Origin: Jimgerdemannia flammicorona
Taxonomy: Eukaryota
DNA: 38,821 nt
Reading direction: 5' to 3'
Assembly: GCA_003990765.1 (NCBI GenBank)
Contig: RBNJ01000154.1
Span: forward strand, 1 to 38,821
Shown here in pieces: positions 3,728 through 34,588 of this stretch. The notes beneath the pieces were generated by a model. The model did not search any database. It was not told the DNA's origin and was given only the letters and a program-made list of their open reading frames with translations. The position numbers and the translations under genes are program-made. The stretch's first letter is position 1. Every line of letters starts with the position of its first letter.

Positions 3728-3757
3728 AATGAAATATGGTTTGTTTGCAATCAATCC

Positions 3758-5788
3758 CTACTGCTCCATGCCCCTCTCCTCCTGTGCCATGTCCAGAATG
3801 TGTTCAGCCATCACCTCCTCCTCTTCAGCCCTCTGAGCCTCCAGTCCAGCCAACAGCTCATTCATCTCCTCATCAGCCTTCTTCTCAAACTCCTCTCTGT
3901 ACTCAATGCAAGCCTCCTGCCAAAGCTGCAACCTATGACACCTGTTCCAACAGTACTCAGCCTTCTCCCCAGCAATAACCGCCAACTCTGCCTCCCTCTC
4001 CTTGTCTACCTCAAACCCTTCCTCCTCCAGATACACTGCAAGAATTTCTGCCTTCAGCACCATCGCCACTCCTTCCCCCTGCAAAATTCTTGCCCAGTAC
4101 TCGTCACTCATCCCATGCAAGTCCACCTCCCCCAGCTCTTCTGCTGCCAGGTTGTTCATCATCCAGTACATCCAAAGTAGGTTCCCCACCTCCTTCCCAC
4201 CAGGGGTCACTGGCCTCCCTCCATCCAGCATCATGGTGTCAGCCCCAGCACTCGCATCCTCATCCCACCCCTCCGGGACATCCACCAGTTCCTCCTCTCC
4301 GGCCGCCACTACCTGGTCCTCATCCATTATCTCCAGAATGCTGAATTTCACCTGCTGGGTCCCCAGCATCGTCACGTCCTCCCCAGATTTGTTCCTGGAA
4401 GCCAGGCCACACCTGATAAGAGGGGAAGGGGTGAGGGAGTTCTCCCAGACTTCCTCCCAAACCTCCAAGGTACCATCTGTATATGGGTTGTTAATCATTA
4501 CCTCTTTTGCCTTCCCTGTCTTTGCCCCATCATTCCCACTCCTCTCACCAGCCCAGACACTCGCTCTAGCCCCTTCTGCACCCATCTTCATGCTCGCATC
4601 CTTCTGTGGTCCACCCCCCAGTTTAGCCAGCAGATCCTTCTGCCTCTTCTGCCCCTGAGCCCTTTCCCACTGCACCTTGTCTACTCGAATCCTCTTCCCA
4701 TCCACTATCTCCAGGTGCGTTGACTCCTCGAAAGTCTTCCAGGCCTTGGCACGCCGTTCCACAGCCCCATCCAGCTCCTCCAGCACTTCCAATAAATCCT
4801 CCTCCTCTTCTTCACTTCCTTTCACCCACGTCACCTTGCACAGGAATGCACCCCAAGCCATCGCTGAAGGCCAGTCCCTCATCTTCCCAGTAGCCTCTTT
4901 TCCGGCCAGCTGAATCCTCACATCTATGTTCCCAGTCCTGAGTGTGGTCCCTTCCCAGACCCTGAATCCAATATCCACTACCTTGCCATACTCCGCCATG
5001 ACATCCTCCACTCTCTTCCTCATCTCCATCGCCATCACCATGGGGACTCCTTTCACCAGCAGTTGGACCACCCTCAGATCCCATCTCAAACACCTCACCA
5101 TCGGAACACACACCTCTTTAACCACCAGCCCAACCCTCAGTGCCTCCTCCAGCAGTTCAACCCCCTCAAAACCCACCTCCACCCCCTCCAGTCCCTTCAG
5201 GAACTTCACTGAAGCTGCTCCAGCCATCTGCTTAGCGATAAGCCTCAACACCATTTTTGCTATCACCGCTAAGCCCCAGAAACACAGCATGACTGCGATC
5301 ACCGAGATCAACTTCTTGAGTAATGGAGCCACCATCAGTCCCATTACACCATCTGCCAGGTTCCCAGGCCTCGTGCCCTTCCCACCATTTGGCTCACCAT
5401 CAGCAGTCCCATCTAGATTTTTTTCCAGATCACCCATCACACCCCCATCAGCAGTCCCTGCCCCAGCCGCTACCCCCCCAGCTCCACCTCTATGGCCCTC
5501 CAGAGAGGTACCCCCAAGAGGTTGCTGCCTGGCAGCCTTTACCGGTACCTTCCCCCCTCACAGCCAGCTCTCCAGTCCAGCCCCTTGCTGACCCCCCTTC
5601 ACCTTCTCCACAAAGCTCACCCTGCCAGACCCTTGACCTCCAGCTCTGCCCTCTCCTCCACTATGGCCTCCCACCAGCAGGCCCCTCATACTTCCCCCCA
5701 AGCCGGGGCCTCTCCCCACTTGCTGCCATCCAAATGCTCCAGGGCCACCCTGCCCAGTATGTACCTCTGGATGCTCATTGGTCGCCAT
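3758..5788 (-). pseudogene. LINE ORF1 (putative RNA-binding/chaperone protein), frameshifted near the N-terminus
   Basis: 560-aa ORF 3758..5440 ends 30 nt before the ORF2 ATG. Likely true start is MATNEHPE at 5788. Glu-rich coiled-coil-like C-terminus. Homologous decayed copy at 19706-20930. Confidence 0.8.
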
Positions 5789-5894
5789 AATACTAGTAGC
5801 TTTTCTCCAGAAACTATGTCAAAAGTGTTGCCAAAGATTGTGTAACCTGAATGTTACCAGAGAAAGATGTGTCAATTTGATTCATTGGGAGCAC

Positions 5895-6717
5895 TAACCC
5901 AGACCAATTCCTGTAAGGATTGATCTCAGTATTCTAAGGCCCAAGCATCTAGGTTAGACCTCTCCAAGACTCCACATTTGTTCCCTATTTTGTGGAAGAG
6001 AACATCATAGACTGGAGAGCTCCAGACCTCCTTCCCACCACCAAATGTGATGACATCATCGGCAATGATATCATCCTGTACAACATATGCAAGATGTGCA
6101 ATGAAGCACATGAAGTATATGAAATGTGTGATGATGATGAATTCATAGACCTCATCTCCTTCGAAGACATCCTGATCTCTGATGATGAAGTCTCATTGTC
6201 CTGAACATTCTACTCTAAGTCTCTTAGTTACACTGAATAATGCCAGCACTAGCATTCTGATGTAACACTGAATAATGCCAGTACTAGCATTCTGATATAA
6301 TACTGAATAATACCAGCACTGGCATTCTGATGTGATACCAAATTATACCAGTATCCTGAACCTATACAACTATCAGTACTGACTCTGGAACTTAGCAGTT
6401 TTTCCTATCCTGGCATTTTATTTTAGTTATTGGAATTTATATTTAGCTTTATATCTTAGCAACCATTGAATTATATTTTGTATAAATATTCCTCTTATTT
6501 TCTCTGAAATAAAGTCAATTTAGTGCAATACCTATACTTCCTTACAAGTAATCTAAGAGATAACAAGACAGTTTAAAGATAAGAAGTTTAAGGACTATAA
6601 GACCTTGGGAAGGTACTCAAATAAGAACTTGCTTATAACAAAACTTGAGTTAGTCTAAGAGATATATCTTGAAGAGAATCTGGTATATTTGAAGGACTCA
6701 GTGACTACTATGTGACA
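5895..6717 (+). repeat. 5' LTR of family A copy 1 (right half only; cut by the LINE)
   Basis: Collinear with 13169-13950 and ends ...tatgTGACA. TATAAAT at 6481, AATAAA at 6508-6513. Confidence 0.93.
6231..6355 (+). repeat. 35-bp tandem repeat (~3.5 units) with an internal 18-bp palindrome, 5' LTR
   Basis: Unit cactgaataatgccagcactagcattctgatgtaa at 6231, 6266 and 6301, plus a partial unit. Confidence 0.9.
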
Positions 6718-6720
6718 ACT

Positions 6721-6735
6721 TGGTGCCCATTGGCT
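6721..6735 (+). promoter_or_regulatory. Primer-binding site (tRNA identity uncertain; Lys-like if TGGTGCCC derives from TGGCGCCC)
   Basis: TGGTGCCCATTGGCT begins 4 nt after the LTR end (3-nt spacer). TGG is complementary to the tRNA CCA end. Confidence 0.75.
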
Positions 6736-6837
6736 AGTGATTCAAGACAAATCCCTCACTTTCAAGCTGAAAAATGAACAACCCCCACAACAACTACCCT
6801 GACTACAAGAGTCACCCCTGTAAGAATTCAAGATAAG

Positions 6838-9800
6838 ATGGAAATATGTTCCTCTATATTTTATGGATATACTACTAAAGAGTCAATCCTGATCTTTATT
6901 GAAGACTTTGAACAATTCACTGCTGTACAAGCCCTTGGTATAGATGCACAATTGGCCCTTCTACCAGTCAGCCTCAGAGGACCTGCCAGAGATAAGTTTA
7001 ATGTAGCCATTATTGCTGATAATGGTGCAGCCAAACTTGCTAACATGAAGGCCTTCCTCAGAACAATATACTATACTGAAGAAATTAAGCAAGCTCTCAA
7101 GGATCAACTCAATACTATCTGCTAGGAACTTAGTGAAGATTCCAACTCATTCTATACTTGAATCTGCCACCAGATTGTCTTGGCTGACTATGATGATGCC
7201 CTCAAGGAACAAATAGCAGATTCAATCTTCCTCAAAGGAGTTCACTCTGAAATTACTCTAATAATCCAGTCTACCCCAGCTATACTGACCCTTGATCAGA
7301 AAGTGGTCTTTGCACAGAGATATTAGACTGCCAGAAACCCTGCTGAACACTCAATAGAAAAAATAACTATTATCAAGATGGAGCCATCAAAGCCAACCAG
7401 TATTATATCTACTACAGTTGTAAACAGACAACCAATCCCACCTACCCCCAAGGTAATCAAAGCTGACCCAGTGGAAGAACTCACCAAGCAGTTTGCCAAG
7501 ATGACTGTACACCTTGGTAATGTTGTTAGAGAAGTCCAAAGTACCAACAGGAGACCAGTGCAGAGATTTGCAGCTGCTATAGAAGAACACAATATCACAT
7601 GCTTCAGATATGAAGAAGAAGGCCACTATGCAAAGAATTGTATGACTGAAATGAGATGCAAGGTCCAACCAAGCAATACTAGCAGAACTAGAGAACAAAC
7701 CAATACAGTAGTCATCAAGGAGATTGGTGATACTGATGATGAAGAATACTATAAGAAGCTCGAATTCTACCCTACTCCTAAAGGTACCAGAACCTGGTCC
7801 AAGCCCTATGACAAGAAGAGCAACAGCAAGCCAGTTAGAAGACCAAAGAAGACCCCAGCTATCACTATTCAAAGCAAGACTCAACCCGAGGAGATTGATC
7901 AAGACATGGAGTTAGATAAAGTTGCTTGCCAAATCATTGAAGGTACTACTCCAGTCTCAGGAGAAAGCAAAAGCAAGAAGGAACAGAAGCTACACAAGAC
8001 CAAGATCCATCAGTATAATATCTATAAGGACTTCAAGGAATAGAAGGTCAATGCCACTTTTGGACAACTAGCTGAAGTCCCTGCCTTTAGACAGCAGTTG
8101 AGAGTAGAACTTGCAACTATAGCCAAGAATCAAGAGTACAAGATTGTAGAAGCTTATAATGTACAGGAAGAATCTGAAAACTCAGGTAAAGAATCTGAAG
8201 ATTAGTGCAAGACATCAGCCTATACCCTATATCAGATTGAAGACTATATCATCATTGATACCAGTGCTGGAGGATGCCTTATGAGCAAGAAGGCAATTGA
8301 GTGCCTAGGTTGGGATATTGAAGAGTCCACCAAGATGGTCTATATTACAGCAGATGGTACATGAGCTACCCTCCTTGGCAAAATCTGAGAAGTCCCCATC
8401 AAGATAGAAGGAGCTACCATCCCAGTAGATGTGATTGTTATAAGCACTACCAACTATGACATTCTCATTGACAACTAATGGCTTTACAAGGCCAAGGCCA
8501 TCATTGACCTCAATGCCCAGAAGATGCAGATCAACTACAGAGGAAGAAAGGTATGAGTCTCTATCAATGTCCACAAAGAAGTTCTACCAGACATGGAGGA
8601 AGGAGATGAAGAGGACACAGAGATCTTCATGCACTCGGTGAATAAGAACAAGAACAAGAACAAGACACCCAAGCTCACAGATAAGCAGTGGTATAACAAG
8701 ATTATTGATGGCTATGCTCTTTAAGGAAGATACCCCCATGGTACTAGGATGTACTGCTCTGAATACCTGAATGACTGCTGGTCCTATATTAGTGAAGTTA
8801 GGAAAATTCATCAACAGAAACACAAGCAAGAAACTGCTGAAGAAAAAAGAAAAGCCAAAGAAGATGACCAGCTCTCAGAGCTTCAAGCCAACAGTGATGA
8901 TGAGGAGGAACAAGAATCAGACATCACCCTCAAGGTTAAGAAGTTTCACCCTGAAGCCAAGATCCCAGAATATAAGACTGAAGAAGCTATAGAAATAGAC
9001 CTTGCTAGCATTTAAGACACTATCCTCGAACCACAGACCACCACCCTACTTGGTACTGGAATTGGAGTCAAGCTGACAGAAAACTATGCCAGAATTATCA
9101 AGACCAGGAGCAGTCTGGCCAAAAGTGAAATCTCAGTTGAAGGAGGAGTAATTGACCCTGATTATACTGGTGAGATCTTTCTCATAGTCAGAAATCACAA
9201 CCCCACCACCCCATTTGAAGTCAAGAAGTATGACAGGATTGGCCAGATGCTGATCTACGAAATCAAGAAACCCAAGATCACTGAAGCCATCAAACTCATC
9301 AAGATCAAGAGAGGAGAACAAGGCTTTGGATCTACTGGAAGAGGAGTCTATGCTACTATCAAGATTACTGAACTTGAGCACAAGAAAGATAAGGACCAGA
9401 ACAAGCACACATATATAATTGAAGAAAACTTTCCCCTAGAGGAATAACTTCTCAAGATCCTACACCAGAATGAAGAGGTACTTGCTACAGACTTTAGAGA
9501 TATCCACAATCAAGAACCCAAGTACTATCACGAAGTTGACACTAGTGATACCCAGCCCATCTACCAGAAAGCCAGACCTATACCACCAGCCTACAGAGAA
9601 TGGCTGCAAGCAGAACTCAAGGAAATGGAAGAAGCCAGAATCATCAAGCAAGCTATCAGCCCCTGGGCTTCACCTATTGTCCTTACCCCAAAGAAAGGAA
9701 GCAAGCCTGGAGAGTTTGCACTAAGACTCTGCATTGACTACAGGAAGCTCAATACCATCACCAAGAAGGATAGACAGCCCTTGCCAAATATTCAAGAAAT

Positions 9801-10860
9801 CCTTACCACCCTTGGAAGTGAAGCTAAATACTACACCACCCTGGATCTGTTCTCAGGCTTCCATCAGATTAGTCTCACTCAAGATACCAGTGAGAAATCA
9901 GTCTTCATCATACCTGATGCCACCTATATCTAACTATAAATGCCATTTGGAATGTGCAATATCCCAGCAAGTTTCCAGTGAATAATGAACAGAGTCTTCA
10001 GTAATAAGATTGGAAAATGACTCTTTGTCTATATTGATGATGTGATCATCTTCAGCAACACTGCACAGGAATATGTCAATCATATACAGCTAGCTCTCAA
10101 GAAGCTCAAGGAGCATGGCCTCTATATTAATCCCAAGAAATATAAGTTTGCAGCTCAAGAAATCGCCTATCTAGGACACCTCATCAACCAGATCAGAATC
10201 TATACAGATCCCATGAAGATCGAGACTATTGCAGCCTACCCAAGACTCAGAACAACTACAGAAGTCCATGCCTTCCTTGGACTAGTCAGCTACTATAGAA
10301 GATTCATCAAAGGATACTCCAACATTGCAGCACCTATCTACAAGCTACTGAAGAAGGAAATCAAATTTGAATGGACCAAGAAGTACTAAGAAATCTTCAA
10401 TGACCTCAAGACCAGATTGACCCAGGCACCTATCCTCAGAAGACCAGATTGGAACCTAGAATTCATCCTGCAGACAGATGCAAGTGCTACAGGACTTAGA
10501 GTCATCTTAGCTCAGAAGAAAGATGGACATGAATATGTCATCTCCTATACAAGTTGAGGTACCCACAGAGCAGAACAGAACTATGAGTCATGCAAGCTCG
10601 AATGCTTAGCAGTAGTCTGAGCAGTAGACAAGTTCCACTACTATCTAGCCAAGAAACACTTCACCATTCAAACAGACCATTCTGCTCTTGCCTGGCTATT
10701 CCACACTCTGAACCCCAAAGGAATATATGCCAGATAGATCTATAGACTGCAAGAGTATAACTATACTGTCAAGCACTGCTCAGGAAGAATCAATACCAAT
10801 GCTGATGTACTCTCAAGGACACCCTGAAACACTCTCATCAAGATTACTCAATATGAATAA
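6838..10860 (+). pseudogene. Single-frame Gag-protease-dUTPase-RT-RNase H polyprotein with many point-mutation stops
   Basis: ORF fragments at 6838, 7378, 8749, 9247, 9625 and 10042 share one frame. Decayed zinc knuckle CFRYEEEGHYAKNC (~7600), protease IIDTSAG (~8250), RT SPWASP / LCIDYRKLN / YIDD (10030-10041), RNase H QTDAS, TDHSAL and ADVLSR. TAA at 10858-10860. Confidence 0.93.
8923..9339 (+). pseudogene. dut: Trimeric dUTPase domain between protease and RT
   Basis: All five motifs in order: AIEIDL (decayed AxGxDL), TRSSLA, GGVIDPDYTGEI, DRIGQM, RGEQGFGSTG. Confidence 0.95.
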
Positions 10861-12049
10861 GGAGCTATACTATGGATTAATTAGCTACCTTGGGCAGCAG
10901 AAGATATCCAACCATCTTGAACCCTGGACAATCACTATTATCAACTGAACTTAGAAATAGTTTGAACTAGACAACATTACACTCAGAAAAAGAGGAAAGC
11001 TAGTAATATCTGAATACAAGAAGTATCAAGTAATGAAGAAAGTACATGAGCAAGGATACCTAGGAGGAACTAACACATATGATAAGGTAAGAAGAATCAT
11101 ATGGTGGCCTAAGATGGAAGAAGACCTGTGCCAATTTGTCAAAGGGTGTGATAAGTGCTAAAAACAGAAACAAGATCAGCAAGACCAGGCACCTGGGTCA
11201 TCAAGAATTGAGCCTATCCCCTTTCACCATATTGCAATGGATATCATTGAGCCACTATCAGTAACACTATCAGGAAACCACTATATTATAGTTATTGTAG
11301 ACCTCTTTACCAAATGGATAGAAGCAGGAGTATTACAAGAAGCCAATGCCCTCTCTATAGCTGACTTCCTATACTAAGAAATCATCTACTACTATAAGAC
11401 ACCAAAGCAAATCACAACAGACTGTGGTACAGAATTTATCAATAGATTCCATGAGATAATATATCAGAAATACAAGATCCAGTACATCAAGACCACCGCA
11501 TACCACCCTCAAGGAAATGGACAGACAGAAAGAACTAACAAGACCCTCAAGAACATCCTGGTAAAAATATCAGAGACATATGAGAGTTGGGATAATTATC
11601 TCCCAACTGCCCTCTCTGTCCTATGAGATATATGATCACAGAGCATACACTTTACCCCAAGAGAACTGCTCTTTAGAGAAGAAGATTCTGATGGAACCTC
11701 AGCTACAAATCTAGACCTAACTTGGAGATAGGTTGATGCAGAAATCTGGAGACTACACCAAATCAGAAAGAAGGCTGAAGATTATATTATCAAGTCACAA
11801 GTGCTGACAAGAAAGAATGCAGAAAAGAATCACAAGACTCTAGAACCCATCTGAATCGGAGAAAAAGTCCTACTGTATTGAAATATGGTAGAAGCCTCAT
11901 GGTCACGAAAACTGGAGCCCAAATAGGAAGGACTCTTCTATGTGCAAGATATCAAGAGAACTATCTTCTGGCTTAGAAAAATCTCAGAGACTATACTGCC
12001 TACCATGGTACATAGGAACAGACTTAAGAAGTACCACAAACCTATATAA
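10853..12049 (+). pseudogene. Integrase in a separate (+1) reading frame with its own ATG
   Basis: MNKELYYGLISYLG start. H...WWPKM...CDKC zinc finger. Core PFHHIAMD, VDLFTKWIEA, TTDCGTEF and YHPQGNGQTERTN. GPF-like KLEPK(W)EG(P)F. TAA at 12047-12049. Confidence 0.92.
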
Positions 12050-12403
12050 GAGAAGCAAAACATGATGATTGCCTACAAGGTTCTAGTCCATGAATCATAA
12101 CAGCATGTCCTGTGACCAGCAGGCTATCTGTCTGAACCATTCTCTAAGAGATATGGCACCAGCAACTACTCATCCATGAGACTTTTGAAGCCAGAGGAGT
12201 TTGAACTATCAACTGATTGGTCAAGATCAGAATTAGGCCCTTGCTCTATATGAAGAGAGTGACTCTTCAACATCATGCCAAAATACAAAGAGAAGATGCC
12301 AGCCCATAAACACCACTTTTTGACTCCTTGCCAGAGGTTATGGGATCAGCAAATTTTTCAGGACTGGACCAATAAATAAGGATGCTCAAGAAGATCCTTA
12401 TTT

Positions 12404-12413
12404 AGGAGGAAGA
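12404..12413 (+). promoter_or_regulatory. Polypurine tract
   Basis: AGGAGGAAGA lies directly before TGTAATG. The same tract is in copy 2 at 28432-28441 (minus). Confidence 0.8.
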
Positions 12414-12656
12414 TGTAATGGTGACTCCAGAATGATGACATTAGTACAGGAGACAGTCTTTCCTTGCAAGTCACCAGATCAGAGCATAAGAAGATCATAT
12501 GGTATATGAGATGAGCAATGATGACCAACTGTAAGTCATTGTGACTACAGTACAAGTATCCTGAGGAATATAAAAGAAGGATTAAGGAACCACAGTAGCA
12601 GCAACCAACAAGACCCACTAATCTCAAAATAGCTCAAAGACTTACTACAAAATGAA

Positions 12657-13451
12657 ATGTCTGCTGCTCATCAAACCTTAAGATCAAGGAACCACCAAGG
12701 CATCTCAGTTGAAGAGAGAATGTTCCAAGACATCAGAAGAGCTATGAGGACCCGCTCAAGAAGGACTCCTAGTGTCAACCTGGGTACTGGTGACCCTTAT
12801 CACTATATTCTCTACTGCCACAAAATGGAAACAAGGATCACTATTGCTACTGAATACCTCCAAATGTGGCAGGAGTATGAAATAGGAAACCTCCTCTACT
12901 AGAAGTTCCCACAGGCCAGCCCTCAAGAGCTATAAGATACCACTTCCATGGATATATGCAAGGTAAGAATAGCTAAGAAGATCCATCAGATCTTCAGGCA
13001 TGCACCATGGTCAATCCCCAACTTGGAGTATGTTAGAGTCTCAGATTTCAGAGATCTGTTATCCCACCATATCAATGCACTAGAAGCTAGGGTGGTTATA
13101 GAAGCCCAGTTCACTATTACCCTCAATAGTGATGAAGTAGAAGACTTCTGGCATTCCATCTTTCAGAATAACCCAGACCAATTCCTGCAAGAATTGATCT
13201 CAGTATTCCAAGGCCCAAGCATCTAGATTAGATCTCCCCAAGACCCCACATTTGTTCTCTATTTTGTGGAAGAGAACCTCATAGACTGGAGAGCTCCAGA
13301 CCTCCTTCCTGCCACTGAATATGAGATGCATGATGAAGCATATGAAGTATGCGAAATATATAATAATGATGAATTTGCAGATCTCATCTCCTTCGAAGAT
13401 ATCCTGATCTCTGATAATGAAGCCCCCATGGTCCTGAATATTCTGCTCTAA
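12657..13451 (+). pseudogene. LTR-embedded ORF (~264 codons), unknown function
   Basis: ORFs 12657, 12948 and 13266 are one frame. The three internal stops (12900 TAG, 12933 TAA, 13224 TAG) are TGG, CAA and CAG in copy 2. Confidence 0.85.
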
Positions 13452-13463
13452 GTCTCTTGATTA

Positions 13464-13585
13464 TACTGAATAATGCTAGCACTGGCATTCTGATATAATA
13501 CTGAATAATGCCAGTATCGGCATTCTGATATAATACTGAATAATGCCAGCACCAGTATTCTGATGTAACACCAAATTATATCAGT
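13464..13585 (+). repeat. 35-bp palindrome-containing tandem repeat, 3' LTR
   Basis: Three units plus a partial one, homologous to 6231-6355. Confidence 0.9.
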
Positions 13586-14025
13586 ATCCTGAATCTGTAC
13601 AACCATCAGTACCAATCCTGGAACTTAGCCATTTTTTCTGTCCTGGCATTTTATTTTAGTTATTGGAATTTATATTTAGCTTTATATCTTAGCAACCATT
13701 GAATTATATTTTATATAAATACCCCTCTTATTTCCTCTGAAATAAAGTCAATTTAGTGTAATATACACACTTCCTTGCAAGCAATCTAAGAGATAACAAG
13801 ACAGTTTAAAGATAAGAAGTTTGAGGACTATAAGATCTTGAAAAGGCACTCCAATAAGAACTTGCTTATAACAAAACTTGAGTTAGTCTAGGAGATACAC
13901 CTTGAAGAGAATCTAGCATATTTGAAGGACTCAACAACCACTACATGACAGTATCTATAGTAGAACTCTCTGAGCTTTGGTGAGCTTTCTAGTAAGTATA
14001 ATTCTGATATAAGTGAGTAGAGTTG

Positions 14026-15118
14026 TATAAGTATACAACCTCCAAGCTACTAAAATTGCATATTACCCTTAGATCAAATCTAGAAATCATATGTAAGATC
14101 ATAAAGTTAAGTTAAACAAAAGTTATAGACTATAAAGCTAAGTCAACTCAAAATCATAGAATACAAAATAATAAAAATAGAACTTTATCAATCAAGACTG
14201 AAAGTATATATACTGAACATATAGTATATCAAAATAAAGAATCACAATAAAACCAAAACTATAACTATAACTCTCAAACATATATCCAGCTATGATTACT
14301 GAAATTTATAACTACATTTATATTAATATTTGGAAAATTATTATCAACTGGGCTATAGTACCTCTGTTTCTTATAAATATCCATAGTTTAGCACTTTTTT
14401 ACTTTATAAAAACTCAATAGAATACTTTGAACATATTTAGTGAGATTTTCCAAATTGGATAAATCTCAAGCTACTATCAGATCAGCTATCTTCTGGAAGA
14501 TATAATTAACCACTACTATGATACAGATATTACCAAGATATCATAATACTAGAAACTCAATCTGCAAATACTGAGAACTCTTCTATAAGTATAGTATCTT
14601 TATTCTCTATTTCTAAGTTACTATCACTAAAATGATTACTACTCTGATCTATAGCCAAATTGATAATATGGTATAAGAACTTAATCAGAAATATATCAAG
14701 TATATCCAAACTACAGACAGACTTTTCTTATATCTAGATGACTATATCCTGCAAATACCTTAAGTTGAATATACTATAAAGGATGTCTATAATATAATCT
14801 AGTTTGATAATGACAAAGCAAAAGACAATGATCCCTCTGATATCAATATAAGCTCCAGTTAAGAATCTCTGCCAATTCTAGTTATTCTCTCAATTTTATT
14901 AATGAACTTATAATAGTTTATAAATATCTATAAAATTTATTAAAATAATAATCACTGATATAAGTATCAATCTATATTTATACTTGACTACTTCAACTAT
15001 AATAAAGAAATAAGAGAATACAATCTGTACTTTCAGATAACTCTTGAACTAACAACTCTACCTTCTGAGTATGAGTGATATAAAAAACAACCACTAGCTT
15101 ACTATAACTCTATATTAT
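14026..15118 (+). repeat. Family B ~1.1-kb LTR-like repeat (probable solo LTR), copy A, heavily decayed; ORF relic at 14292-15078
   Basis: Homologous (inverted) to 15126-15994 and 16038-17074. Consensus termini approximately TG(C/T)AAG...ACA. Confidence 0.75.
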
Positions 15119-15125
15119 TGGCAGT

Positions 15126-15994
15126 ATTGGTAGAGTGATCAGAGTTAGCAGAGATTCTTGGCTTGAGGTCATATCAGCATCAGAGAGATCATTGTCTTCT
15201 GCTTCATTATCATCAAATCAGATTATATCATAGATATCCTTCATGGCATATCCTACTTGGGACATTTGCAGGATATGGTTATCAGAGTGTGGGAAGGTTC
15301 TATCTGTGGTCTGAATATACTTGATATACTTATGGTTGAGTTCTTATATCATGTCATCAATTTGGCCATAGGACAGAGTAATAACTATTTCAGTAGTAGT
15401 GACTTAGAGGCAGAGAATAAAGATGCTGTACTCATAGAAGAGTTCTTGATATTTTTGAGCAATGAGTTTCTAGTGTTGAGACATCTGGGTAATATCCATA
15501 TCATGGTAGTGTTTGACCATGTCTTCTAGGAGGCAGCTGATCTGGTAGTAGCTTGAGATTTGTCTGATTCAGTGGGTCTTGCTAAGTATGTTCAAGGCAT
15601 TCCATCAGGCTTCCATGAAGTAGAGGGGTGCTAGGCTATGGATATTTATGAGGAGCAGAGGGGGTGTAGCTTGATTGATAATGACATTCCAAATGTCAGC
15701 ACAGATGTAGTTATAGATCTCAGTAGTTATGTTTGTATATATTCAGAAGTTATAGTTATTTGTTTGGTTTGTTTTGGTTCTCTGTTTCGATGTATCTCAG
15801 TGCTCAGTATATATATTTGGTCCTGATTGGTAAGATTCTGTTTGTGTAAATCTTGTGTTCCATGACTTCATGTTGACTCAGCTTTGTATACTGTGACTTT
15901 GGTTTGACTCAGCTTTGTGATCTTGCATGTGATTTCAGTGGCTTGTTCAGAGGGTGATATGTGATTTCAGTAGCTTGAAGGTTGTGTGCTTGCA
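15126..15994 (-). repeat. Family B LTR-like repeat, copy B (least decayed, 3'-truncated); ORF relic from 15730 to ~15126
   Basis: Starts TGCAAGCACACAACC. CCAAT and TATATATA lie upstream of an ORF broken only by single-transition stops. Confidence 0.78.
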
Positions 15995-16037
15995 ATCAGA
16001 TTCACTATTAGTATATCTTTGATAGATTACAGTACTA

Positions 16038-17074
16038 TGTATTACAGAGTTGTAGTATACTAGTAGTTGTTCTTTATTTTACTTATACTTAGAAAGTAAG
16101 GTTATTAGTTCTATCTTGAGGGTTATCTGAAGGTATAGATTATATTCTCTAGGCTCTTCATTGTAGTTGAAGTAGTTAGATATAAATATAGGTTAATACT
16201 TATACCAGTGGTCATTATCTTAGTAGGTCTTATATGCAGTTATGAACTATTATAAGTTTATTAGTAAGATTGGTGAGGTGATCAGGATTGGTAGGAATCC
16301 TTAACTAGAGATTATATTAGTATCAGAGAGATTATTGTCTTCTACTTTATTAATATCAAACTAGATTATATCATAGATATTCTTCATAGTATATCCAACT
16401 TGATATATTTGTAGTTGAGTTCTTATACTATGTCATTGATTTGGCCATAAATTAGAGTAACAACCATTTTAGTAGTAGTAACTTGGAGGCAGAGAATAAT
16501 AGTGCTGTATTTATAAAAGAGCTCTCAGTGTTTACAAGTGATAAGTTTCTAGTATTAAGACATTTCAGTAATATCTGTATTATAGTGATGGTTAATTATA
16601 TCTTTCAGAAGGTAGCTAATCTAATAGTAGTTTAAAATTTGTCTAATTCAGTAGATCTCACTAAGTATATTCAGGGCATTCTATTGGACTTTTATAAAAT
16701 AGAGAAGTGCTAGGCTATGAATATTCATAAGGAATAGGAGTGCTGTGGCTCAATTGATAATAATATTTCAAATGTCAGTACAGATGCAGTTGTAGACTTC
16801 AGTGACTATATCTAGGTATATTTTTGAGAGTTGTGGTTATTTGTTTAGTTTGTTGTAATTCTCTATTTTGATATGCTATATATTTGATATATATACTTTT
16901 GGTCCTAATTAGTAAGATCTCATTTTTGTATATCTTATCTTCTATGACTTCAAGTTGACTCAGCTTTATGATCTGTGACTTTAGTTTGACTTGGCTTCAT
17001 GATCTGATAGATAATTTCTGAATTCATTCTGAGGGTAATGTGTAATTTCAGTAGCTTAGAGGTTGTATCTTATA
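16038..17074 (-). repeat. Family B LTR-like repeat, copy C
   Basis: Direct repeat of copy B and full-length inverse of copy A. ORF stop, then AATAAA, then terminal ...GTAATACA. Confidence 0.75.
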
Positions 17075-18300
17075 TGTATACATATATAGTACTGCTAGTC
17101 AGATTCTTCTTAAACTAGAACTACTCTAAGACTATCTTTAGAAGTATCTGTATATAAAATGAATGACTTCTATATGGTTGGACTATATAAAAATCAGTAC
17201 TATAGTCATATAATACTTGAGTTCTTTGAAGACTAGATCTTATGATTCCATCTATTTGTATAGTATTTCTTTCTTAAGAAGGATTTAGATTGGAGCAGCA
17301 ATTTGAGTAAAGTTCTTAATAAATTTTCTATAATAAGACACTAATATCAGAAATGATAGTGTTTTCTTTAGAATCTTAGGTTCTGATCAGTTGTTGATCT
17401 TCTCAGTTTTCTTTAGATCTATATGGGTTTCTTCTTTCAAAACTATAAATCTAAGAATTTTGAGTCTCTGTTTTCCAAAGTAGCATTTCTTGGTATTGAG
17501 TCTCAGGTGGTTCTTGCAGGTGAGCTTAAAGAATTTCTCTAGATATATATGTAGGTATTCTCTGAAATTTGCTAAATAGATATTAGTGTCATTTATATAT
17601 ACAATTAGACAGTAGTAGATCAATAGGTCATAAACTAAGTTTATCATTTTTTTGGAAGGTTTGGGATATATTGTAAAGTTCAAAGAATATTCTTTAAGTA
17701 AAAAAGACTATTTTTTAAATATTCTTAATCTATGGAAATCTTATAAAATCCTACGAAAAGGTCCATATTACTGAAGTATCTAGTCTTATAAGTAGTCTAA
17801 GAGGTCATCAATTCTGAGCAAGGGGTAGATATCTTTTTCTATAACTAGGTTGAGCTTTTTATAGTTTATATAGAGTTTTCATCCTTCTTTCTTAGATATA
17901 ATAAATATAGAACTGACCCAGAGGCTAATGGAGGATCAGATAACTCTATTGTCTAAGAGTTTCTGAATATATTTCTTTTTAAATATCTTTAGGTAATAAA
18001 GTATTCTATAAGACTTTAGTTAAATAGATATTAATTTTCCATATTAATACTATAGTAGTATGATGGGTTATATGTATGATAGATTAATATAGTCTATAGT
18101 AAAAATATCTAGATATTTATGAAGAAGTTCTACTAGTTATTATTATTGCTAAGATATCAATTCTTCTCTAATGTTTGTAGAAAGCTTTATTTCTTCTAGT
18201 TCATAGAGGGGTATTTTCTTTCTTTTAGAACCTTTTGCTATTTTCTAATAGATTTAGTTTATAAACTTCTCTGTAAGTTCAGTTGAGATAAAGTATCAGA
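17075..18300 (-). mobile_element. Heavily decayed Ty3/gypsy RT-RNase H relic (third internal region; may extend to ~19700)
   Basis: Minus strand reads INYKKLN...KDIYPLLRIDDLLD...YFSNMDL (decayed DYRKLN/YPLPRIDD), IVYIND (YIDD) and FILYTDTSKDSLRVVL (TDAS motif). Confidence 0.85.
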
Positions 18301-19705
18301 TGTCCTATGATAGTTCTTTTTGATAGAATGAGACTTTCTCAGCTTTGATTAATTGCTTAAGAATATACAAAATTTATCTTATCAGAAAATATATATCTTT
18401 TTATGTCTAGGTTTTTGATATCTTTATTGAGTTCAAAGAAAAGATTTCTAATGTCAGATAGTATAAAGATTTCAAAGATGGTCTGCTCTCCTAGTTCTAG
18501 AGTGAGGTTCTTATATAGCTTGACTGGTTGGCAGTATACTTACTGAGAGACTATAATAAATATATATATTATAGAGGACAATTATACTTATTAAAGTATA
18601 AGAGTGCTTTAATATAGTTAAGTCAGATAAAATCTGAGACTTGGACTATATATCAGCAAATGTCTAAATAGAAATATATAATTAGACTTAAGGAATAGAA
18701 CTTGAGAAGTTCAATTGCCTTTAGAAGATTTGAGTAAATGTATGATAACTAACTAGACTAAGCTTTATTGAAGTATTCAGAGAGAGTATTTATATAAGAG
18801 AAATAGTAAGAAAAAGAAACAGATAGAATATTTACTAAGTTAGATACTAAGCAATGAGTCATGCTTAGTAGAACTTAGTAGAACATTATAGAGAGTTACT
18901 AAGTATTAATTAATAATTAATATAATCTTGATAGAACTATTTAGGAAACAGGTTCTTGGTAAATAACTAAGTAATTCTATACTATTCTAAGCTATTTTGG
19001 AATTTTCTACTGAGTAATATAATAAAGAAAAGATAATAATTCAGTAAAAGAAAAATAGAATATAGAGAATTATTATATCTTTTTCTACTTGAAAGAGAAT
19101 ATTATTCTCAATATTTATATTCATAGAGAGCTTTTTGTGTATTCTTGAGGATTTCAATATATTCTCAAGTACTATCATACTTAGGATAGTCTACTCATTT
19201 GATAAGGTACTCAGTATAATTATAATATATATATTTGTTAAAAATCTTCTCAACTTCATACTTAATATAACTATCAATTAAAAGAGATACTAATAGCTAA
19301 GAAGTTCAGTTTAGATACTTATACAGACTATCATAGTATAGCTTAAGTAGAGAAATATGGAAAACAGAATATATACAGATAGTCTATAGTAGTATTAACT
19401 TGTATACTACTGAGAATACTTATTCAAGTATCTTATAGAGACTAATGTATCTTGTTTGAAGTTTCTTAAAAGGATAGTTGACTTGAGATATTAAATTGAG
19501 ATTTATAGTAGAAGAGTACTTGATTGCCAATCTTGAATTTAATCTTCTATCTCCTAGTATTAGTATATTTGACTTATTATGTCTGAGTCTTAAGTAGGTT
19601 ATCTTTGGCAACTTGAATTATTATAGCTATATTATTAATAATAGAAACTTTAGAGAGTTCTTTCTCAACTTACATAAGTAGATCCAGACCTCTTTCCAGT
19701 ACTAC

Positions 19706-20930
19706 TCAGGTTATACAAACTTCTAACAATACTTTCAGCATAACTTTTGAAGAAATGATGATAGTAATATAGAAACTAATAATTATTCTGAGATATATAC
19801 TAGGCAGGGTGGCTCTAGTATATTTAACTAGTAGTATATTAGGTAGAGTTATGGCTTGAGGGGGAGTCTGTTGGGCTCTCTTTCTGGTGAACATTAAGAA
19901 GAAAACAGTGGAGCTAGTGGGTAAGAGATAGAGAAGATGAGCTTTGCTATCAAGATCAAGGCTGAGCATCTATCAACAAGTTTGAAGGGTTAGCTATAGA
20001 GAGATAAGAGAAAGAAGAGAGCAGCCAGATCTGAGGGGGTGGCCTCAGATAGTGATAGTAATGGGGCTAAAAGAGTAATAGCTGGGAGAGAGAGGAGGAC
20101 TGCTGATAGAGAGAGAACTGTTAATCTAGAAAAAAAATCCAGATGTGATGGCTGATGGTAGGGCTGAATAAAGAGAGGGAGGGGTATGCGGTCTAGAGAC
20201 CTGGCTGATGGTATAATGGGTCTAGTGATAGTACTATTACTCAAGAAATCAGTGTCTAAATTCATCATCACATTATACTTCTGAGACTTAGTAGTTATAA
20301 CAAAAAGAGTTCTAGGGCTTCTGGCCCAGGAGGTAAAAGAAGCAGCCTCAGTGAAGTTCTTAAAGAGACTGAAAGAAGTAGAGATGAGTTTCAAGAAGAA
20401 GAAGAAGTTAATATTAAAAGTATTGGAGAAAGAAGTAATAGTGGGAGGAGTAGTGATCCCTATGACTTAGTACTTATACTGAAATCTCTGAGTGGTATAG
20501 CTGATAGTGTTAAATGTACCCATAGTGAAGGAGAAGACCAGGGCTGATTGTTAATATTATCAAGGAGTATAGAGATATAATAGATATTGAATTCCAGATT
20601 TGAGAGAGTACAGAGTTTAGAACTAGGAATGTGAATATCAGAATAAGACTAGCAGGTAAGGAGAATACTAAGAAAGAAAGAAATTGACCAGTAGTACTTA
20701 AGTGAGAACTAGTGGAGTATAAGGTCTTGAGAGTAAAGAGGATACTAGAGGAGGAGAAGAACTTGCTAGAGATATTAAAAGACCTGGCTAGAGCAGTAGA
20801 AAAGAGATAGTTGGCCTGAAAGAAGTTCAAGGCTAAGACAGTGAATGGTAAGAGAGTGTGACTGAATCAGGCTTCTGAGAGAGGGCATAAGAGAGACAGC
20901 ATCAGAAAGATTTGTTAGTAAATCTGAGAA
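19706..20930 (+). mobile_element. Decayed 5' fragment (UTR + ORF1 part) of the same LINE family
   Basis: tcaggttatacaaac... aligns to the reverse complement of ~5850-4620. Shared segments include gcagcctcagtgaagttctt and aggaatgtgaatatcagaata. Confidence 0.85.
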
Positions 20931-21215
20931 AGTGAGTAGAGAGACCAATTAGCTATATTGTAGTATAGATCTATAAGCCACTCAATTGTTCCATTCTCCC
21001 ATTGATGAATAGTCTCTACAATATTCTTTACTTAAGAAATAATAGTAAGAGTAAGTATACCTAAGATAATCTGTATTACAATTAATAATAGCTTGACTAT
21101 TTTGATGAATTCAAATATATCTGCTTATAAAGAAGTATTTCTGAAAGATCTCCAGACCTTATGGCAGTAATTATTATACATATGTGCAATCCTCAAAAGA
21201 CTTCTCAGATGCAGT

Positions 21216-21680
21216 TCAGTTTATATATTTAAGTATTTTATCATATCTATAATTGATTCTCAAAAACTCTAGATCCTTATAAACAGTGACAGAATCTTGA
21301 ATGTTTTTCACTAAACCACTATCCTTAAGCCCAAGAAACTTATACAACTGCTCCTGTAACTCATCTCTTTTTATATTTCTAGACAGCTTTACTCCTTTAG
21401 GTAATTTGCTATTTATTTGTTTAAGAAAATCTTTCAAAATACTCATATATAGATAACCAAGGAGGACATTGACAGGAATATTATACTTGTCTGTAAGGAA
21501 AGCTAATGATGAGCTGGTAGTGACTTGGGTAGACAAGAATGGGGTAACAATAACTTGGGTAGATAAAGAAAGACAAGAAAGAACTAGCAATAGCTTGAGA
21601 TAACAAAGATAGACCAGCAATAGCTTTAAATGATGAAGACAGATAAGTAATAGCTTGACTGAACAAGGAGGTAATAGCAA
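21216..21680 (-). other. Unclassified decayed coding relic with 30-bp (10-aa) imperfect repeats
   Basis: acttgggtaga at 21522 and 21552; agcaatagctt-like units at 21586, 21616 and 21646. CpG-free context, no recognisable domain. Confidence 0.35.
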
Positions 21681-23974
21681 GATATGGTTATGCTATCTGG
21701 AAATAGTAGTAGCTAATGTAGATATAAGAGTATTAGATGCAAGTAAGACAGATAAAGTAGAAGAAGATGATATCATATGAAAAACTCAGTTATATAAAAT
21801 TTGTATATATATAAGCTACAGAAAATATAGTTGTCAAAGAGATTAGAGTCTTACTGATTCTCAAAAAAGATCTTAATCTGGGTCTAGTTAGCTATAATAG
21901 ATCCTGTATCTCAAGATACTCATATGAACTTTAATTTTTTTTTTATAACCAAATCAGTATATCTTAGTGATAAAAATTAAGTATATATATACTCTATGAA
22001 TATTATATATGATATATGATTTTATAGTACTCCTTATGAATGTCTATTATTTTAATAATATATATTTGTAGTTTTGGTTATCTAAGTATTGAGAAGCTAT
22101 CAGACTGGTATAATATGTAATTGACTAAACTACTACAGCTATCTTACTGAGTTTGATAAAGGTAATATCTACATTTCTATCAGTCAAATGAGAATAGCAC
22201 CTTTATGAAAGAGTGACTCAATTGATAGCTTGAGTATGTCAATCAGTTATATAGAGAATTTTTTCTAAAATAGACAATTCTTATTTTAGACATATTTTCA
22301 ATAATGATACTAGATAATATCTGGTAAATAGAGATGACTGTTTAAAAGATACAGAAGGGTATAAGTAGACATTCTAAGTGAAGTTACAAATATATATACT
22401 TATATATATACTTAAGTTTTCATTTTTAAATATGATTATTTATATAGAATTAGTTTTATAATACTACTAATCTATATCAAGTGTCTTTCATATCTCATAC
22501 TTCTTATACTATTGCACAACATCTTTCAGCATGATGGTATAGTATAGCTAATCTATAACCTTATAAATTTTGAAGATATAGAATATTAAATATATATATA
22601 TATACATATATTAAAAACTAACTTTATAAAATAGCTCTCTGATTAATTTACTATAATGCTATAGAGTTAGAATTTTAATTTTTATTTTTTATTTTTGTAT
22701 TTCTCCAAAATTATTATATTTAGTTATAATGAGATGATAGAATGTAAAATAATGATTGAGATAATAGAATAATAATTGAGATATAGAAGAAAATTAGATA
22801 ATAAAAAAAAAAAAAAAAACAATTAGCTTCTCCTTTAGTATTTTTAACTTAGTTGCAATAACTCAAGAACTATCAACTTTAGCTTCAAAATATAAGTTCT
22901 GGCAAACAAACCTTTCTTATAAACTCAAAACTTATTCAAAAAAAAAAAAAAATTCAGCATAATTTCTTACAGTCTTACAAGGCAAATAGTAGTTTATTGT
23001 CAATAGTACTCAAAGAGGTTGACTTCAGATTAAGGTTCCAGCCCAGTACATATATATATATATCTAGTCAACTTTTGGTATTGCAAGATAATAGGGACAG
23101 TTCATTATAGACAATTTTTTACATGAAACGTCACAACAGATCACGTGTGGTCACATGTTGCCGAGGGTCGGATTATGGCCGCAGTCACATATAATTGGTC
23201 ACATGGTTAGGTTTATAGATTGGCCGTTCTGTATCAATACTAAAAATCCACTCCGGCAATTCGGCCTTCCGTTTCGGCGTTTCATGAACGAGCTCGGCTT
23301 CCTGAGATCTAGCTCTATGCGCTTTGGAGTTATTCTACCTGAGATCGGAATCTTAGTTCCGTAGGGGCCGGTGCAGAGGCCTTCCCTCGACCATGATCCC
23401 CGTCGATGAGGGCACTATGTTCGGGCTCAAGCGACGCGACTAGGCTACAAGGCGGCGGGCGCCATAGAGGGACCATTTCTGAAGCCTCCCCGGTCGTCGG
23501 TATTCTGTCCGCTCCCTACTCATGGGCGGTTAGTGCTCACCCCGAACCTCGGGTTGAAACGTACACGTAGACGAGATCAATATGAGGGCTGCCTGCAGTA
23601 TCCAGAAATTCCAGCAGCAATTTTCACTTCATGAACTTTTGATTTTTTGCAGCTTTAGTTAACTCACCGCGATGTATGCTAAGTCCGCTGCCAAGACGTT
23701 TTGTGTCAGCCAGGAACGCTCTTGAATTCGAGAAATAGAAGAGATACACATAATACTCTCAGAACCGTCAATTCCGATCCACGGACCTCCGGGTTTCGGG
23801 AACAATAAACCTTACTGTGTAAGGATTCAATGGCATTTAGGTAGCGGTGGTACCATCGGAGGCATAAAACTGCCTACTAAATGTTCTGATATTGATCCTC
23901 CCATTCGGTTTCTCCTCCTCATTCACCTTTCCCCCTCTCTCCACCATACCTCCCAAGAACGAAAACGCGAGACT

Positions 23975-25797
23975 ATGGACCAGCTCAACACTAAATTCAT
24001 CGTGAAAAAGCCTACCAAGTCGGATGATGAGGATAGCTTTCCGCCGCCGCCACCGGTCGGCACGCCACCGGAATTTACTTCGATGGATGGAAGGAGGTAT
24101 AATAGTAAGGGCAATGCTTCGTATGTCCTGCCGAACGACAACATCGAGTATGCTCGCCTGAACTCGCAACATTACCAGGTACGTGTTTGTAAATGATAAA
24201 TTGTTGCAAGGCAAACAAACTTTCGGCCCACTAACAACCACCTATTATTAACACTAGTGGAGGTAGGCTCGCCTTAGATGCAGTTTGGCATCACCGAGTT
24301 TGGGCTAAAGATTCAAACTTACTGTTGACCTTCTTCTCCCCTCATGCCGCCTTCCAGATATTTATTTCAGGGGTAAGTCGAACCGTTTGATCATCAAGGG
24401 GTTGAACGCCGTTAATGATAGAAACAGACTGTTCATATTTCGTATCTTCAACAGAAGTTTCAATTCCCCGATGACAGAAGAACTTAAGAAAGGTATCAAG
24501 GTCCTCGACGTTGGGTAAGCACCGCACAAAACTTTTGTCTTGTCCAACCCATCTGACTCTGACAATCCTTGACGAAGCTAATACTGATACCTTATTTTCT
24601 CACTAGTTGCGGAACTGGTGTATGGTGTGTGGTAGGTCTGACCGTTTTCGCAACATGCATCTATAACTGGGATGGCAACCCGGTTGGAATATGCACTTCG
24701 CCAATACCGCGCATCCTCCCAACGTGATCCAGAAACAAGAATCAACGGCGGGAGGATGACGGCGATTATCGCCAAGATGCATTTTTTTTTTATTTTTTTT
24801 ATTTTTTATTTTTTTTTCGTTATCAACGCCAGATGCATGGATGGGTCTTTAATATACGTTTCTCCCGATCAAAACAATAGGAAATGGCGACCGAATTTCA
24901 GGAGTCCAGCTTTATTGGCACGGATATCACCGAAGTCGTCGCGGCAACCCCTCTCGTCCCGTCCAACTGCAGCTTCATTCAGGCCGACACGCAGAAGGGA
25001 CTACCTTTCGAGGAGAACACATTCGACTTTGTGTTCATGAGGGCACAAACGCTGTGCTACCCCGAGAAAATTTGGCCGGACGTCATCAAGGAACTGGCGA
25101 GGGTGGCGAAAGTGAATGGCATGGTCGAGATCTGTGAGTATGCGTGGATGATTGACGACCGTCGTTTGCGATGCTTGAACGATATAAGGGTTCGCGTACT
25201 AATGCACTGTGCGGCTCGCTATTCTGGTAGTTGATACAACCCTGACTGTCCGTGATGGCGGACCATCCTTTACGACGCTAATAAACGAGTGGCGTACGTA
25301 TGCTACCATTGCATCTGATTGCTCTTGGCTATACAACGCCATTTTATCCTGGGGTACTTATCTCAAACACTACCATTTAGTCGCAACGGCCTTGAGGATG
25401 CGATATATCGATACAACTGTCACTGCGCGCCTAGAGCCAATGTTCGTATCGGCCGGCATCGGACCCGTCACGCATCTCTCCGCACAGTGGCCGCTCGGGT
25501 GGGACCCGACCAACACTCAATACACGAAAATGTCGAAGGAGGTGAGTAAATCGTTCGTTTCTGTACGGTCGAGAATGAACCCTAGATAATCATCACTAAC
25601 ATCGTGCGATCGCTCGTTAGAATGTCCTTTCGTTGCTGCAGGGCATCAAACCGCAGGTACTGGCCGCCCTGGGGATTGCCGACAAAGAATACACCGAACA
25701 CTTTGATAACGTGGAATTGGAATTCGGCGAGTACAAACCGCATTTTGACCTCGAGTTCTACTACGGAAGGAAAGACGACGCCTCGAAATCGTCCTAG
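23975..25797 (+). CDS. Class I SAM-dependent methyltransferase (fungal LaeA-like/Methyltransf_23/25 type), 9 exons, 320 aa. Exons 23975-24178, 24258-24262, 24358-24372, 24455-24514, 24607-24631, 24881-25133, 25231-25293, 25381-25541, 25621-25797
   Basis: YVLPND..E..RL..QHY, KVLDVGCGTGVW, EMATEF, LPFEENTFDFV and ELARVAK motifs are joined by GT-AG introns, several with CTAAC/CTAAT branch sites. Exon total is 963 nt, an open frame ending in TAG. AATAAA at ~26005. Confidence 0.9.
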
Positions 25798-26858: not shown

Positions 26859-28431
26859 TATTATGTAGTGGGCACTGAGTTCTTCAAATATATCAGATTC
26901 TCTTCAAGGTATATCTCTTAGACTAACTACAAGTTTGTTATAAGCAAGTTCTTAATAGAGTGCCTTCCCAAGGTCTTATAGTCCTCAAACTTCTTATCTT
27001 TAAACTGTCTTGTTATCTCTTAGATTGCTTGTATAGAATTGATAGTAAGTGAACTGAGGGAACTGACTTTATTTTCAAGAAAATGAGAGGAATATTTATA
27101 CAAAATATAATTCAATAGTTGCTAAGATATAAAGCTAAATATAAATTCTAATAACCAAATAAATAAGATACTGAAGCACAGAAAACTTCAGTTGTAAGTA
27201 CAAATTTAAGTACTTGTACAAATGATTGCACAAGTTCAGAATGCTAGTAGATTTCAGTTATATAGGAAAAGGATGCCAGAAGATTTAGATATTCAGATAA
27301 ACAGTTATACAAAGAACTCAGAGCAGAATTTTCAAACCCTGGAAACTTCATCTTCATTACTACTAGAGGTCAGAATGTCTTTAAAGAAAATGAGGTTGGT
27401 GAACATTTTGTCTGTTTCACATATGTTGTATATTTCATATGCTTCATACATATGTATCACCAATTAGCAGGATGATATTATCATCAATAATATTATTATA
27501 TTCAGTGATGGCAGAGAGGAGGGTAAGGAGATCTGGAGCTCTCCAATTTATAATATTCTCTTCTACAAAATAAGGGACAAATGTGGGGTCTTGAGGAGAT
27601 CTAACCTGGATGCAGAGACCTTAGAATACTGAGATCAATTCTTGTAGGAATTGATCTGGATTATTTTGGAGAATGGGATTCCAGAACTCTTCTATCTCAT
27701 CACTATTGAGGGTGATAGTGGATTGAGCTTCTGTGGCTACTATGGCCTCTAGTATATTTGTGTGGCAGGCTAATAATTTCTTGAAGTCTGAGACTCTGGT
27801 ATACTCTAAGTTAGAGATCAACTAAGGTATATGCCTGAAGATATGATAGATCTTTTTGGCTACTCTTATTTCATGTACATTCATGGGGGTGGCATCTTGT
27901 ATCTTGGGGACTGATCTGAGGAAATTCCCAGCAGAGGAGGTTTTCTATTTCATACTCTTACTATATCTAGAGACATTCAGTAGTAATAGTGATCCTTGTT
28001 TTCATTTCACAGCAGTAGAGAATAAAGTGATAAGAGTCACTAGTACTCAGATTGAGGCTAGGAGTCCTTCTGGTATAGGTCTTTATAGCTCTTCTGATGT
28101 CTTGGAACATTCTTTCTTAGACTAAGAATCCTTGGTAATTTCTGGACCTTGAGGTTTAGTAAGTGGTAGACATTTCATTTATAGTGAGTCTTTGAGCTAT
28201 TTTGAGATTTGTGAGTCTTTTTTGAGTTACTGCTGCTGTGGTTCCTTAGTCCTTCTTTTATATTCCTTGAGATATCTATCTTGTGGTTGTGATGACTTAT
28301 AGTTAATCATTATTACTTATCTTATAGTCTGGGTAAGTTATGTCATATGATCTTCTTGTGCTCTGATCTAATGACTTGTAAGGAAAGACTGTCTTCTGTA
28401 ATGATGTCACTATTTTGAGGTCACTATTATA
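26859..28431 (-). repeat. 3' LTR of family A copy 2 (~1573 bp) containing the LTR-ORF relic 28173-27318
   Basis: Begins TATAATAGTGAC after the PPT and ends CTACATAATA (decayed TGTAACGGTGAC...CTACGTGACA). Confidence 0.85.
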
Positions 28432-33812: not shown

Positions 33813-33846
<34 letters not shown>

Positions 33847-34585: not shown

Positions 34586-34588
34586 CTC

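Follow-up and report, generated by a model that had tools for sequence, protein, structure and literature searches.

Several retroviruses carry a gene that lies in, or overlaps, the U3 region of the long terminal repeat (LTR), as do sag of mouse mammary tumour virus (MMTV), nef of the human and simian immunodeficiency viruses (HIV and SIV) and tas/bet of the spumaviruses. The spumavirus protein Tas joins a folded part that does the binding to an acidic tail, placed after it, that activates, and is associated with an internal promoter. Extra open reading frames (ORFs) are known in LTR retrotransposons as well, where almost none has a function assigned to it and very few have been described in fungi. 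In Ty3/gypsy elements, additional ORFs (aORFs) situated between pol and the 3' LTR include the env-like ORFs of plants, which are in sense orientation, and the antisense ORFs of Grande, RIRE2 and Retand (PMC7264820), and the brtn ORF of the Botrytis element Boty is also antisense (PMC7264820; 10.1101/2021.04.13.439636). In PMC2864245, the legend to figure 3 marks fungal gypsy elements as having an 'add. ORF' whose function is unknown, and section 5 describes fungal gypsy elements bearing a dUTPase: PosPlaTy3-5 of Postia placenta, along with elements from Phanerochaete and Tuber. In PosPlaTy3-5 the dUTPase lies between the protease (PR) and the reverse transcriptase (RT), an arrangement that few fungal gypsy families are reported to have. 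Here we analysed a contig of 38,821 nucleotides from the fungus Jimgerdemannia flammicorona (RBNJ01000154.1, assembly GCA_003990765.1), called the window below, in which a Ty3/gypsy-type element, A1, has an extra ORF in its 3' LTR region. An earlier reading made from the letters alone (the sequence-only reading) had proposed that this family A ORF and a frame in an unrelated repeat, B, encode one old accessory protein. We consider it likely that element A carries a real sense gene downstream of pol, most likely inside U3, and that the frame in repeat B is no detectable relative of it.

The family A extra ORF begins 590 nt past the pol stop, which lies near 12065. Its frame is preceded by a stop at 12630 and has its first ATG at 12657, and both are kept in A2, the second element of this family in the window. 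The frame reads MFQDIRR, EYEIGNLL and IAKKIHQIFRHAPWSIPNLEY, letter for letter as quoted earlier, and its three in-frame stops are all of the transition type. A profile of the family matched 12720-13448 at 475 bits, and the A2 copy was recovered by the profile in three different frames, at 28110-27898, 27914-27462 and 27448-27326. By profile, the ORF is present in 3/3 LTR copies of the window, and it also occurs in very many contigs of 4/4 public runs, which argues against a one-off transduction. A word-seeded database search yielded five relatives at E <= 0.01 among 251 candidates (best 3.5e-110), the closest being an open protein of 271 aa with 100% query coverage and 67% identity and one of 247 aa with 73% identity. 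We then built two alignments: A4, with five members, omitted P0007 for its aberrant C-terminus, and A5 comprised P0001, P0003-P0006 and P0011-P0014, with P0007-P0010 left out. Against 1.84 billion representative proteins of all lengths the A4 profile found five matches at E <= 0.001, of 138-342 aa, and no longer, host-like relative at any length. Among metagenome contigs, the 243 stretches matched by a protein-pattern scan included no relative, and an exact 32-nt LTR pattern had no match; among viral contigs 70 stretches matched the pattern, again with no relative.

The open relatives (P0003-P0006 and P0011-P0014) are 138-342 aa long and 29-80% identical. Even the distant members P0012-P0014, at 47, 41 and 29% identity, keep the frame with in-frame gaps only, and in their alignment conserved blocks alternate with variable stretches. 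The blocks that hold with the distant members included are W-x-[ED]-YEI, AKK-x-HQ-x-FRH, F-[QE]-G-P-x-I and a hairpin-like PQDP...PYF...I-x-W; five close members have 85 invariant columns, and the close members have the tail motifs DLISF and LNxLL (LNFLL) in common at their C-terminal end. A frame that is kept at 29-47% identity with in-frame gaps, together with a shared acidic tail, is unlike non-coding DNA. As we read these alignments, the frame at 12657-13451 is a decayed copy (pseudogene) of a real gene, and family A is a small, previously unnamed orphan aORF family in a gypsy-type element.

To place this ORF among the described systems, we compared both the element and the ORF with them. 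The Pfam matches of A1 follow one another as RVP_2, dUTPase, RVT_1 (1.1e-28), RT_RNaseH_2, Integrase_H2C2 and rve, and this order of PR, RT, RNase H and integrase (INT), flanked by the direct repeats 5895-6717 and 13169-13950, which align at 84% identity (BLAST), identifies the element as Ty3/gypsy (Metaviridae). Its dUTPase (PF00692, 3.9e-23) occupies residues 726-854 of the frame starting at 6778 (window 8950-9350, plus strand). Standing between the protease and RT, it resembles that of PosPlaTy3-5, a likeness that concerns the arrangement; for those elements, section 5 of PMC2864245 describes no LTR-borne ORF. The extra ORF itself is like the known aORFs, since it is family-wide (in all three LTR copies), follows pol in a gypsy-type element, keeps its frame across 29-80% identity, has no similarity to known proteins and is suspected of a regulatory role. 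It is a sense ORF, unlike brtn and the ORFs of the Grande type, which are antisense; it shows no sign of env features; and it probably lies inside U3 and is duplicated with the LTR, unlike aORFs placed between pol and the LTR. Its separation from brtn and from the 'add. ORF' elements is drawn from their descriptions. Like sag, nef and tas, it is a 3'-terminal sense ORF of ~250-300 residues in, or running into, U3, but Pfam and PDB searches, and fold searches with a low-confidence model, gave no match to them, and it belongs to a retrotransposon without env in a fungal host. The open-access papers searched yielded no account of a sense ORF situated within an LTR of fungal gypsy elements.

The encoded protein has ~250-270 residues. 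Its N-terminus is mildly basic, its core is conserved and its tail is strongly acidic; beyond F-x-G-P-x-I the net charge is -11 to -20 in 8/9 members, the ninth being truncated. AlphaFold, supplied with nine sequences, predicted helices between residues 18 and 185, with a predicted local distance difference test (pLDDT) score of 70-87 in parts and below 50 after residue 217. These models point, at low confidence, to a helical core, and the acidic C-terminal tail is probably disordered. At E <= 1, Pfam listed nothing beyond two unrelated families below threshold, and no Sag, Nef or Tas, and a profile search of the PDB with the family returned no chain at E <= 1. With Foldseek, no PDB entry matched at E <= 0.001, the VIA wide fold search reached a best Z of 3.9, with 0/48161 chains at Z >= 5, and in the Atlas comparison the best feature score was 0.83 with TM <= 0.33. 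Because the models are weak, these fold-search blanks are uninformative and not evidence of a new fold. The novelty claimed earlier for A holds to the extent that no characterised domain was found by Pfam, PDB sequence or fold searches. The notion of a conserved helical accessory protein survives for A, which is conserved, unannotated, gypsy-borne and acidic-tailed with its low-confidence helical core, and falls for B, which has no relatives.

Next, we asked where the gene lies relative to the LTR. The last 94 codons of the ORF (profile positions 149-242) recur at 5890-6192 in the cut 5' LTR, so that the earlier placement of the ORF inside the LTR is borne out directly for this part, while for the first ~170 codons, whose counterpart is lost because the 5' LTR is cut at 5895, it goes through a putative LTR start at 12414. 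There, TGTAAT at 12414 comes directly after a purine run, AGGAGGAAGA (12404-12413), both inside 26 nt identical in A1 and A2, and the other end of the 3' LTR, ...CATGACA at 13950, pairs with the 5' LTR end at 6717 in the alignment. The natural LTR start is probably 12414. Summed contig depth, a poor measure and hence a weak hint only, was 2.2-2.9x the internal level in three bins covering 12448-13278 in 4/4 public runs; the contigs were short, and no joint or loose end fell at 12414 among the 24 of 623 loose ends listed. With this start, the ORF would begin 243 nt inside the LTR and end 263 nt before a TATA-like TATAAATA, which together with AATAAAG lies in a block near-identical in all three LTR copies. 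An LTR of 12414-13950 with the ORF ahead of TATAAATA/AATAAAG puts the ORF in U3; most likely the whole of it lies there, in which case a copy would be present in each full LTR. We also observed, between the stop of the ORF and the TATA-like box, three tandem units of ~35 nt (TACTGAATAATGCCAGCA...GCATTCTGATATAA), at 13455-13575 and at 6220-6340 on the plus strand. They are missing from the A2 LTR, contig depth falls in their bin in 4/4 runs, and they look like an enhancer-like variable region of U3.

An alternative placement makes the ORF an internal 3' gene in the env position whose tail overlaps an LTR starting near 13169, in the way that HIV nef overlaps U3. What speaks for it is that the sole 5' LTR copy in the window begins to match exactly at 5895, aligned with 13169. 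However, a LINE-like (long interspersed nuclear element-like) element of the opposite strand ends at that point, so that the break at 5895 is secondary; moreover, neither TG nor a purine run directly precedes 13169, and depth rises one bin after 12171-12447 and not at 13169, which again is a weak indication. We therefore regard this placement as improbable and keep the gene, most likely, inside U3.

The second frame named in the sequence-only reading lies in repeat B, whose three copies are ~0.9-1.1 kb long, have TGT...ACA ends and a GC content of 26-38%, and are heavily decayed by C>T/G>A changes. Given these ends and this length, the copies are probably LTRs; none of the three is joined to a matching internal region. 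The B frame reads ICADIWN, YYQISCLL and IAQKYQELFYEYSIFILCL, again letter for letter as quoted, except that one TAA had silently been taken as Q, and the quoted spacings between the motifs (~45 residues, then 24 in A versus 21 in B) are correct. However, only 15730-15115 of the frame belongs to B2, and the remainder, 15114-14945, comes from the opposite strand of the inverted copy B1. Since the last 57 of its 262 codons are B1 read backwards, this length is accidental, and the equal ORF length of ~262-264 codons in A and B, to which the earlier reading had pointed, is an artefact of B2 ending near 15115. We found no relative of the B frame among 109 candidates and none of its antisense partner frame among 339. 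B1 and B2 stand tail to tail with a short common flank, which outside the TGT...ACA ends reads ATCAGA[AT]T...ACT[AT]...TAG (13951-14023 and 15996-16037). The A1 3' LTR ends only 73 nt from B1, and this distance together with the common flank suggests that the insertion site of A1 lay in the internal region of a B-type element, shortly ahead of the LTR of that element.

The A and B repeats have no evident DNA similarity, as had been stated, with none found by self-BLAST at E <= 1e-10, and the proteins did not reveal any either. The best BLASTP segment between A and raw B had E = 0.98 and was not the alignment proposed before. The Smith-Waterman score of A against raw B was 38, compared with 34.6 +/- 5.6 for shuffles, and was reached by 127/500 of the shuffles as well as by 10/120 frames of neighbouring decayed DNA. 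The claimed residue pattern shared by A and B is thus no better than chance, and the motif match of B to A is what chance gives. A search of the six window frames with the A profile (E <= 10, filters off) returned five stretches, all of them A copies and none within 14024-17078, and a B-like member was absent among the matches of the all-length A profile search. The invariant A-family block FRHAPWSIPNLEY has no counterpart in B, neither raw nor after de-RIP, the reversal of repeat-induced point mutation (RIP), for which we projected C and G of the other two B copies onto B2. The profile-profile comparison that had been suggested for checking the idea was run with hhalign on B de-RIPed from the window copies, and gave a non-significant P = 0.08 (probability 0.7%); with raw B, P was 0.41. 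Pairwise, profile-sequence and profile-profile tests of homology were all non-significant. As a non-significant profile alignment had been named in the sequence-only reading itself as grounds for rejection, A-B homology is for now refuted, and unsupported homology takes with it the idea of two families sharing one ancient protein.

Several observations weigh against our reading, which takes A as a real gene most likely inside U3 and B as no relative of it. As to the gene, the case for it is drawn from sequence; the open relatives were called as genes on contigs of only 720-2375 nt, and since gene calls list open frames only, the openness of these relatives taken alone is ascertained. The AlphaFold models have a poor mean pLDDT, 35 with five sequences and 52.9 with nine, the latter model being the one behind the fold searches. 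As to its position, the only 5' LTR is cut at 5895, so that two thirds of the ORF could formally be internal, with the ORF running into the LTR. As to B, de-RIP of B2 over 15115-15730 (205 codons) lowered the stops of the B frame from 6 to 2 and those of its antisense partner from 6 to 3, whereas the other four frames kept 8-17. On the de-RIPed sequence the A5 profile ranked the B frame first of 36 frames, albeit with only 2.1 bits and a per-sequence E of 0.0058, which amounts to ~0.2 over the 36 frames. Furthermore, the best HMMER path was the collinear alignment proposed earlier, from profile positions 39-144 to B 121-223 with one 3-residue gap, and its score was reached by 25/1000 shuffles of de-RIPed B2 and 46/1000 of de-RIPed B3, compared with 198/1000 for raw B2.

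These last results are what keeps alive the explanation that the A and B frames go back to a single ancient accessory gene borne by an LTR, which has diverged, and in B has decayed as well, nearly past detection. The start offsets are in line with it, being alike at ~243 nt (A) and ~265 nt (B2) into the repeats, as are the acidic patches found late in both frames. Set against this are the non-significant tests given above, the missing FRHAPWSIPNLEY block and the lack of a B-like member among 1.84 billion proteins; in addition, the alignment was chosen by eye and post hoc, and B as an LTR could have either orientation. We assign this explanation a small probability, the signal of a very remote relationship being faint. 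In our preferred reading, repeat B is LTR-like, unrelated to A and much more decayed; it has two complementary, relatively open frames, of which the B frame is one, and a relic ORF is possible there on either strand. The remaining explanation, by which the A frame has no function for the element and reflects chance openness, constraint on LTR DNA signals or recent capture of a host fragment, can point to database relatives that are gene calls on short contigs, to the absence of a known domain in Pfam and the PDB and to the mere five representative clusters in the database, but it is hardly compatible with distant members that keep the frame and the acidic tail, with recurrence in all window LTR copies and in many contigs of every run, and with the lack of a longer host-like protein, and we hold it to be unlikely.

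What the A protein may do can be sketched tentatively. We think it possible, though doubtful for this specific role, that it is an element-encoded regulator. Its template would be either the genomic transcript, in its 3' part, or a short mRNA; going by motifs, the latter would begin downstream of the conserved TATAAAAG (12569) and terminate at the poly(A) signal of the LTR itself. Binding of a partner or of nucleic acid would fall to the folded core. The acidic tail would bring in host machinery, acting as an activation domain, as in foamy-virus Tas, or counteracting silencing; the core-plus-tail model and the internal promoter are both borrowed from Tas. A more far-reaching version would have, in gypsy-type elements of this fungal lineage, a U3 gene with its own TATA upstream and the LTR poly(A) signal downstream, would make every LTR, solo LTRs included, a transcription unit for an acidic-tailed regulator, and would take B as the relic of a very distant second member at the same LTR-start offset; this combination seems to us improbable. 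The features referred to above and their surroundings are collected in Table 1.

Table 1. Positions of the features in the 38,821-nt window
Feature	Positions	Strand	Remarks
Family A extra ORF, A1 3' LTR region	12657..13451	+	264 codons; in-frame stops TAG82, TAA93, TAG190
Second A ORF copy, element A2	27326..28173	-	Frameshifted; ~20 stops in starting frame
TATAAAAG	12569..12576	+	81 nt before ORF ATG, same sequence in A1 and A2; candidate for an internal promoter
3' LTR of A1	12414..13950	+	1537 nt; start putative, end from alignment
5' LTR of A1, cut	5895..6717	+	Carries only last ~94 ORF codons (5890-6192)
TATAAATA (13714-13721) and AATAAAG (13741-13747)	13714..13747	+	Candidate LTR promoter / poly(A) signal
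A1 internal region	6778..12065	+	gag (CCHC), protease, dUTPase, RT, RNase H, integrase; several stops and frame changes
Element A1	5895-13950	+	
Element A2	33813-26863	-	
Family B frame	14945..15730	-	262 codons, 10 in-frame stops
Repeat B, three copies	14024-17078	mixed	
B1	14024-15125	+	TGT...ACA ends
B2	15995-15115	-	Short by ~220 nt
B3	17078-16038	-	Abuts broken RT/RNase H frame
LINE-like element	1-5894	-	GC-rich, near-intact; RVT_1 2.9e-24
Gypsy fragments	17079 to ~23000	-	Very AT-rich; RT piece 17387-17647, integrase SH3 near 19400
Host gene	~23700-25600	+	Methyltransferase domain

Self-BLAST, repeat finding and Pfam scans show decayed fungal retroelements nested in the window, and their decay is uneven. 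Differences between A1 and A2 comprise 949 transitions versus 104 transversions, and at the C/T differences the next base is A in 251/419, a RIP-like pattern. Element A1 has a TpA/ApT ratio of 0.83 and an extra ORF with only three stops, compared with a ratio of 1.04-1.17 and a GC content of 25-29% for B and the fragments to its right (14024-23000). The LINE-like element has a GC content of 52-55%, a strong strand skew and an A-run at the first bases of the window; its ORF1 is open over 599 codons (3758-5557), and its ORF2 carries the RT with few stops. Copies of its ends are found at 33836-34245 and ~19700-20250; that these are decayed while the element itself is nearly undecayed suggests that it was active after the episode of transition mutation. 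At 34300-38821 on the minus strand, a Ty1/copia-type gag-pol frame, seen in translation only, reaches the right window edge; it has a CCHC knuckle, and judged by motifs its integrase precedes the RT. The host gene between the decayed repeats is multi-exon, has a normal GC content of 46-50% and encodes an S-adenosylmethionine (SAM)-dependent methyltransferase domain (Methyltransf_25, 2.7e-08).

In summary, the A frame joins a known class of retrotransposon extra ORFs as a new orphan, B is at best an unrelated relic, and present evidence does not bear out one protein in two unrelated LTR families. Family A provides a clean, conserved orphan family to test, with a predicted helical core and an acidic tail. 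Its probable position inside the LTR is unusual and would spread the gene with solo LTRs, and if its product were indeed a transactivator or an anti-silencing factor, this would amount to a retrovirus-like accessory function in a fungal retrotransposon.

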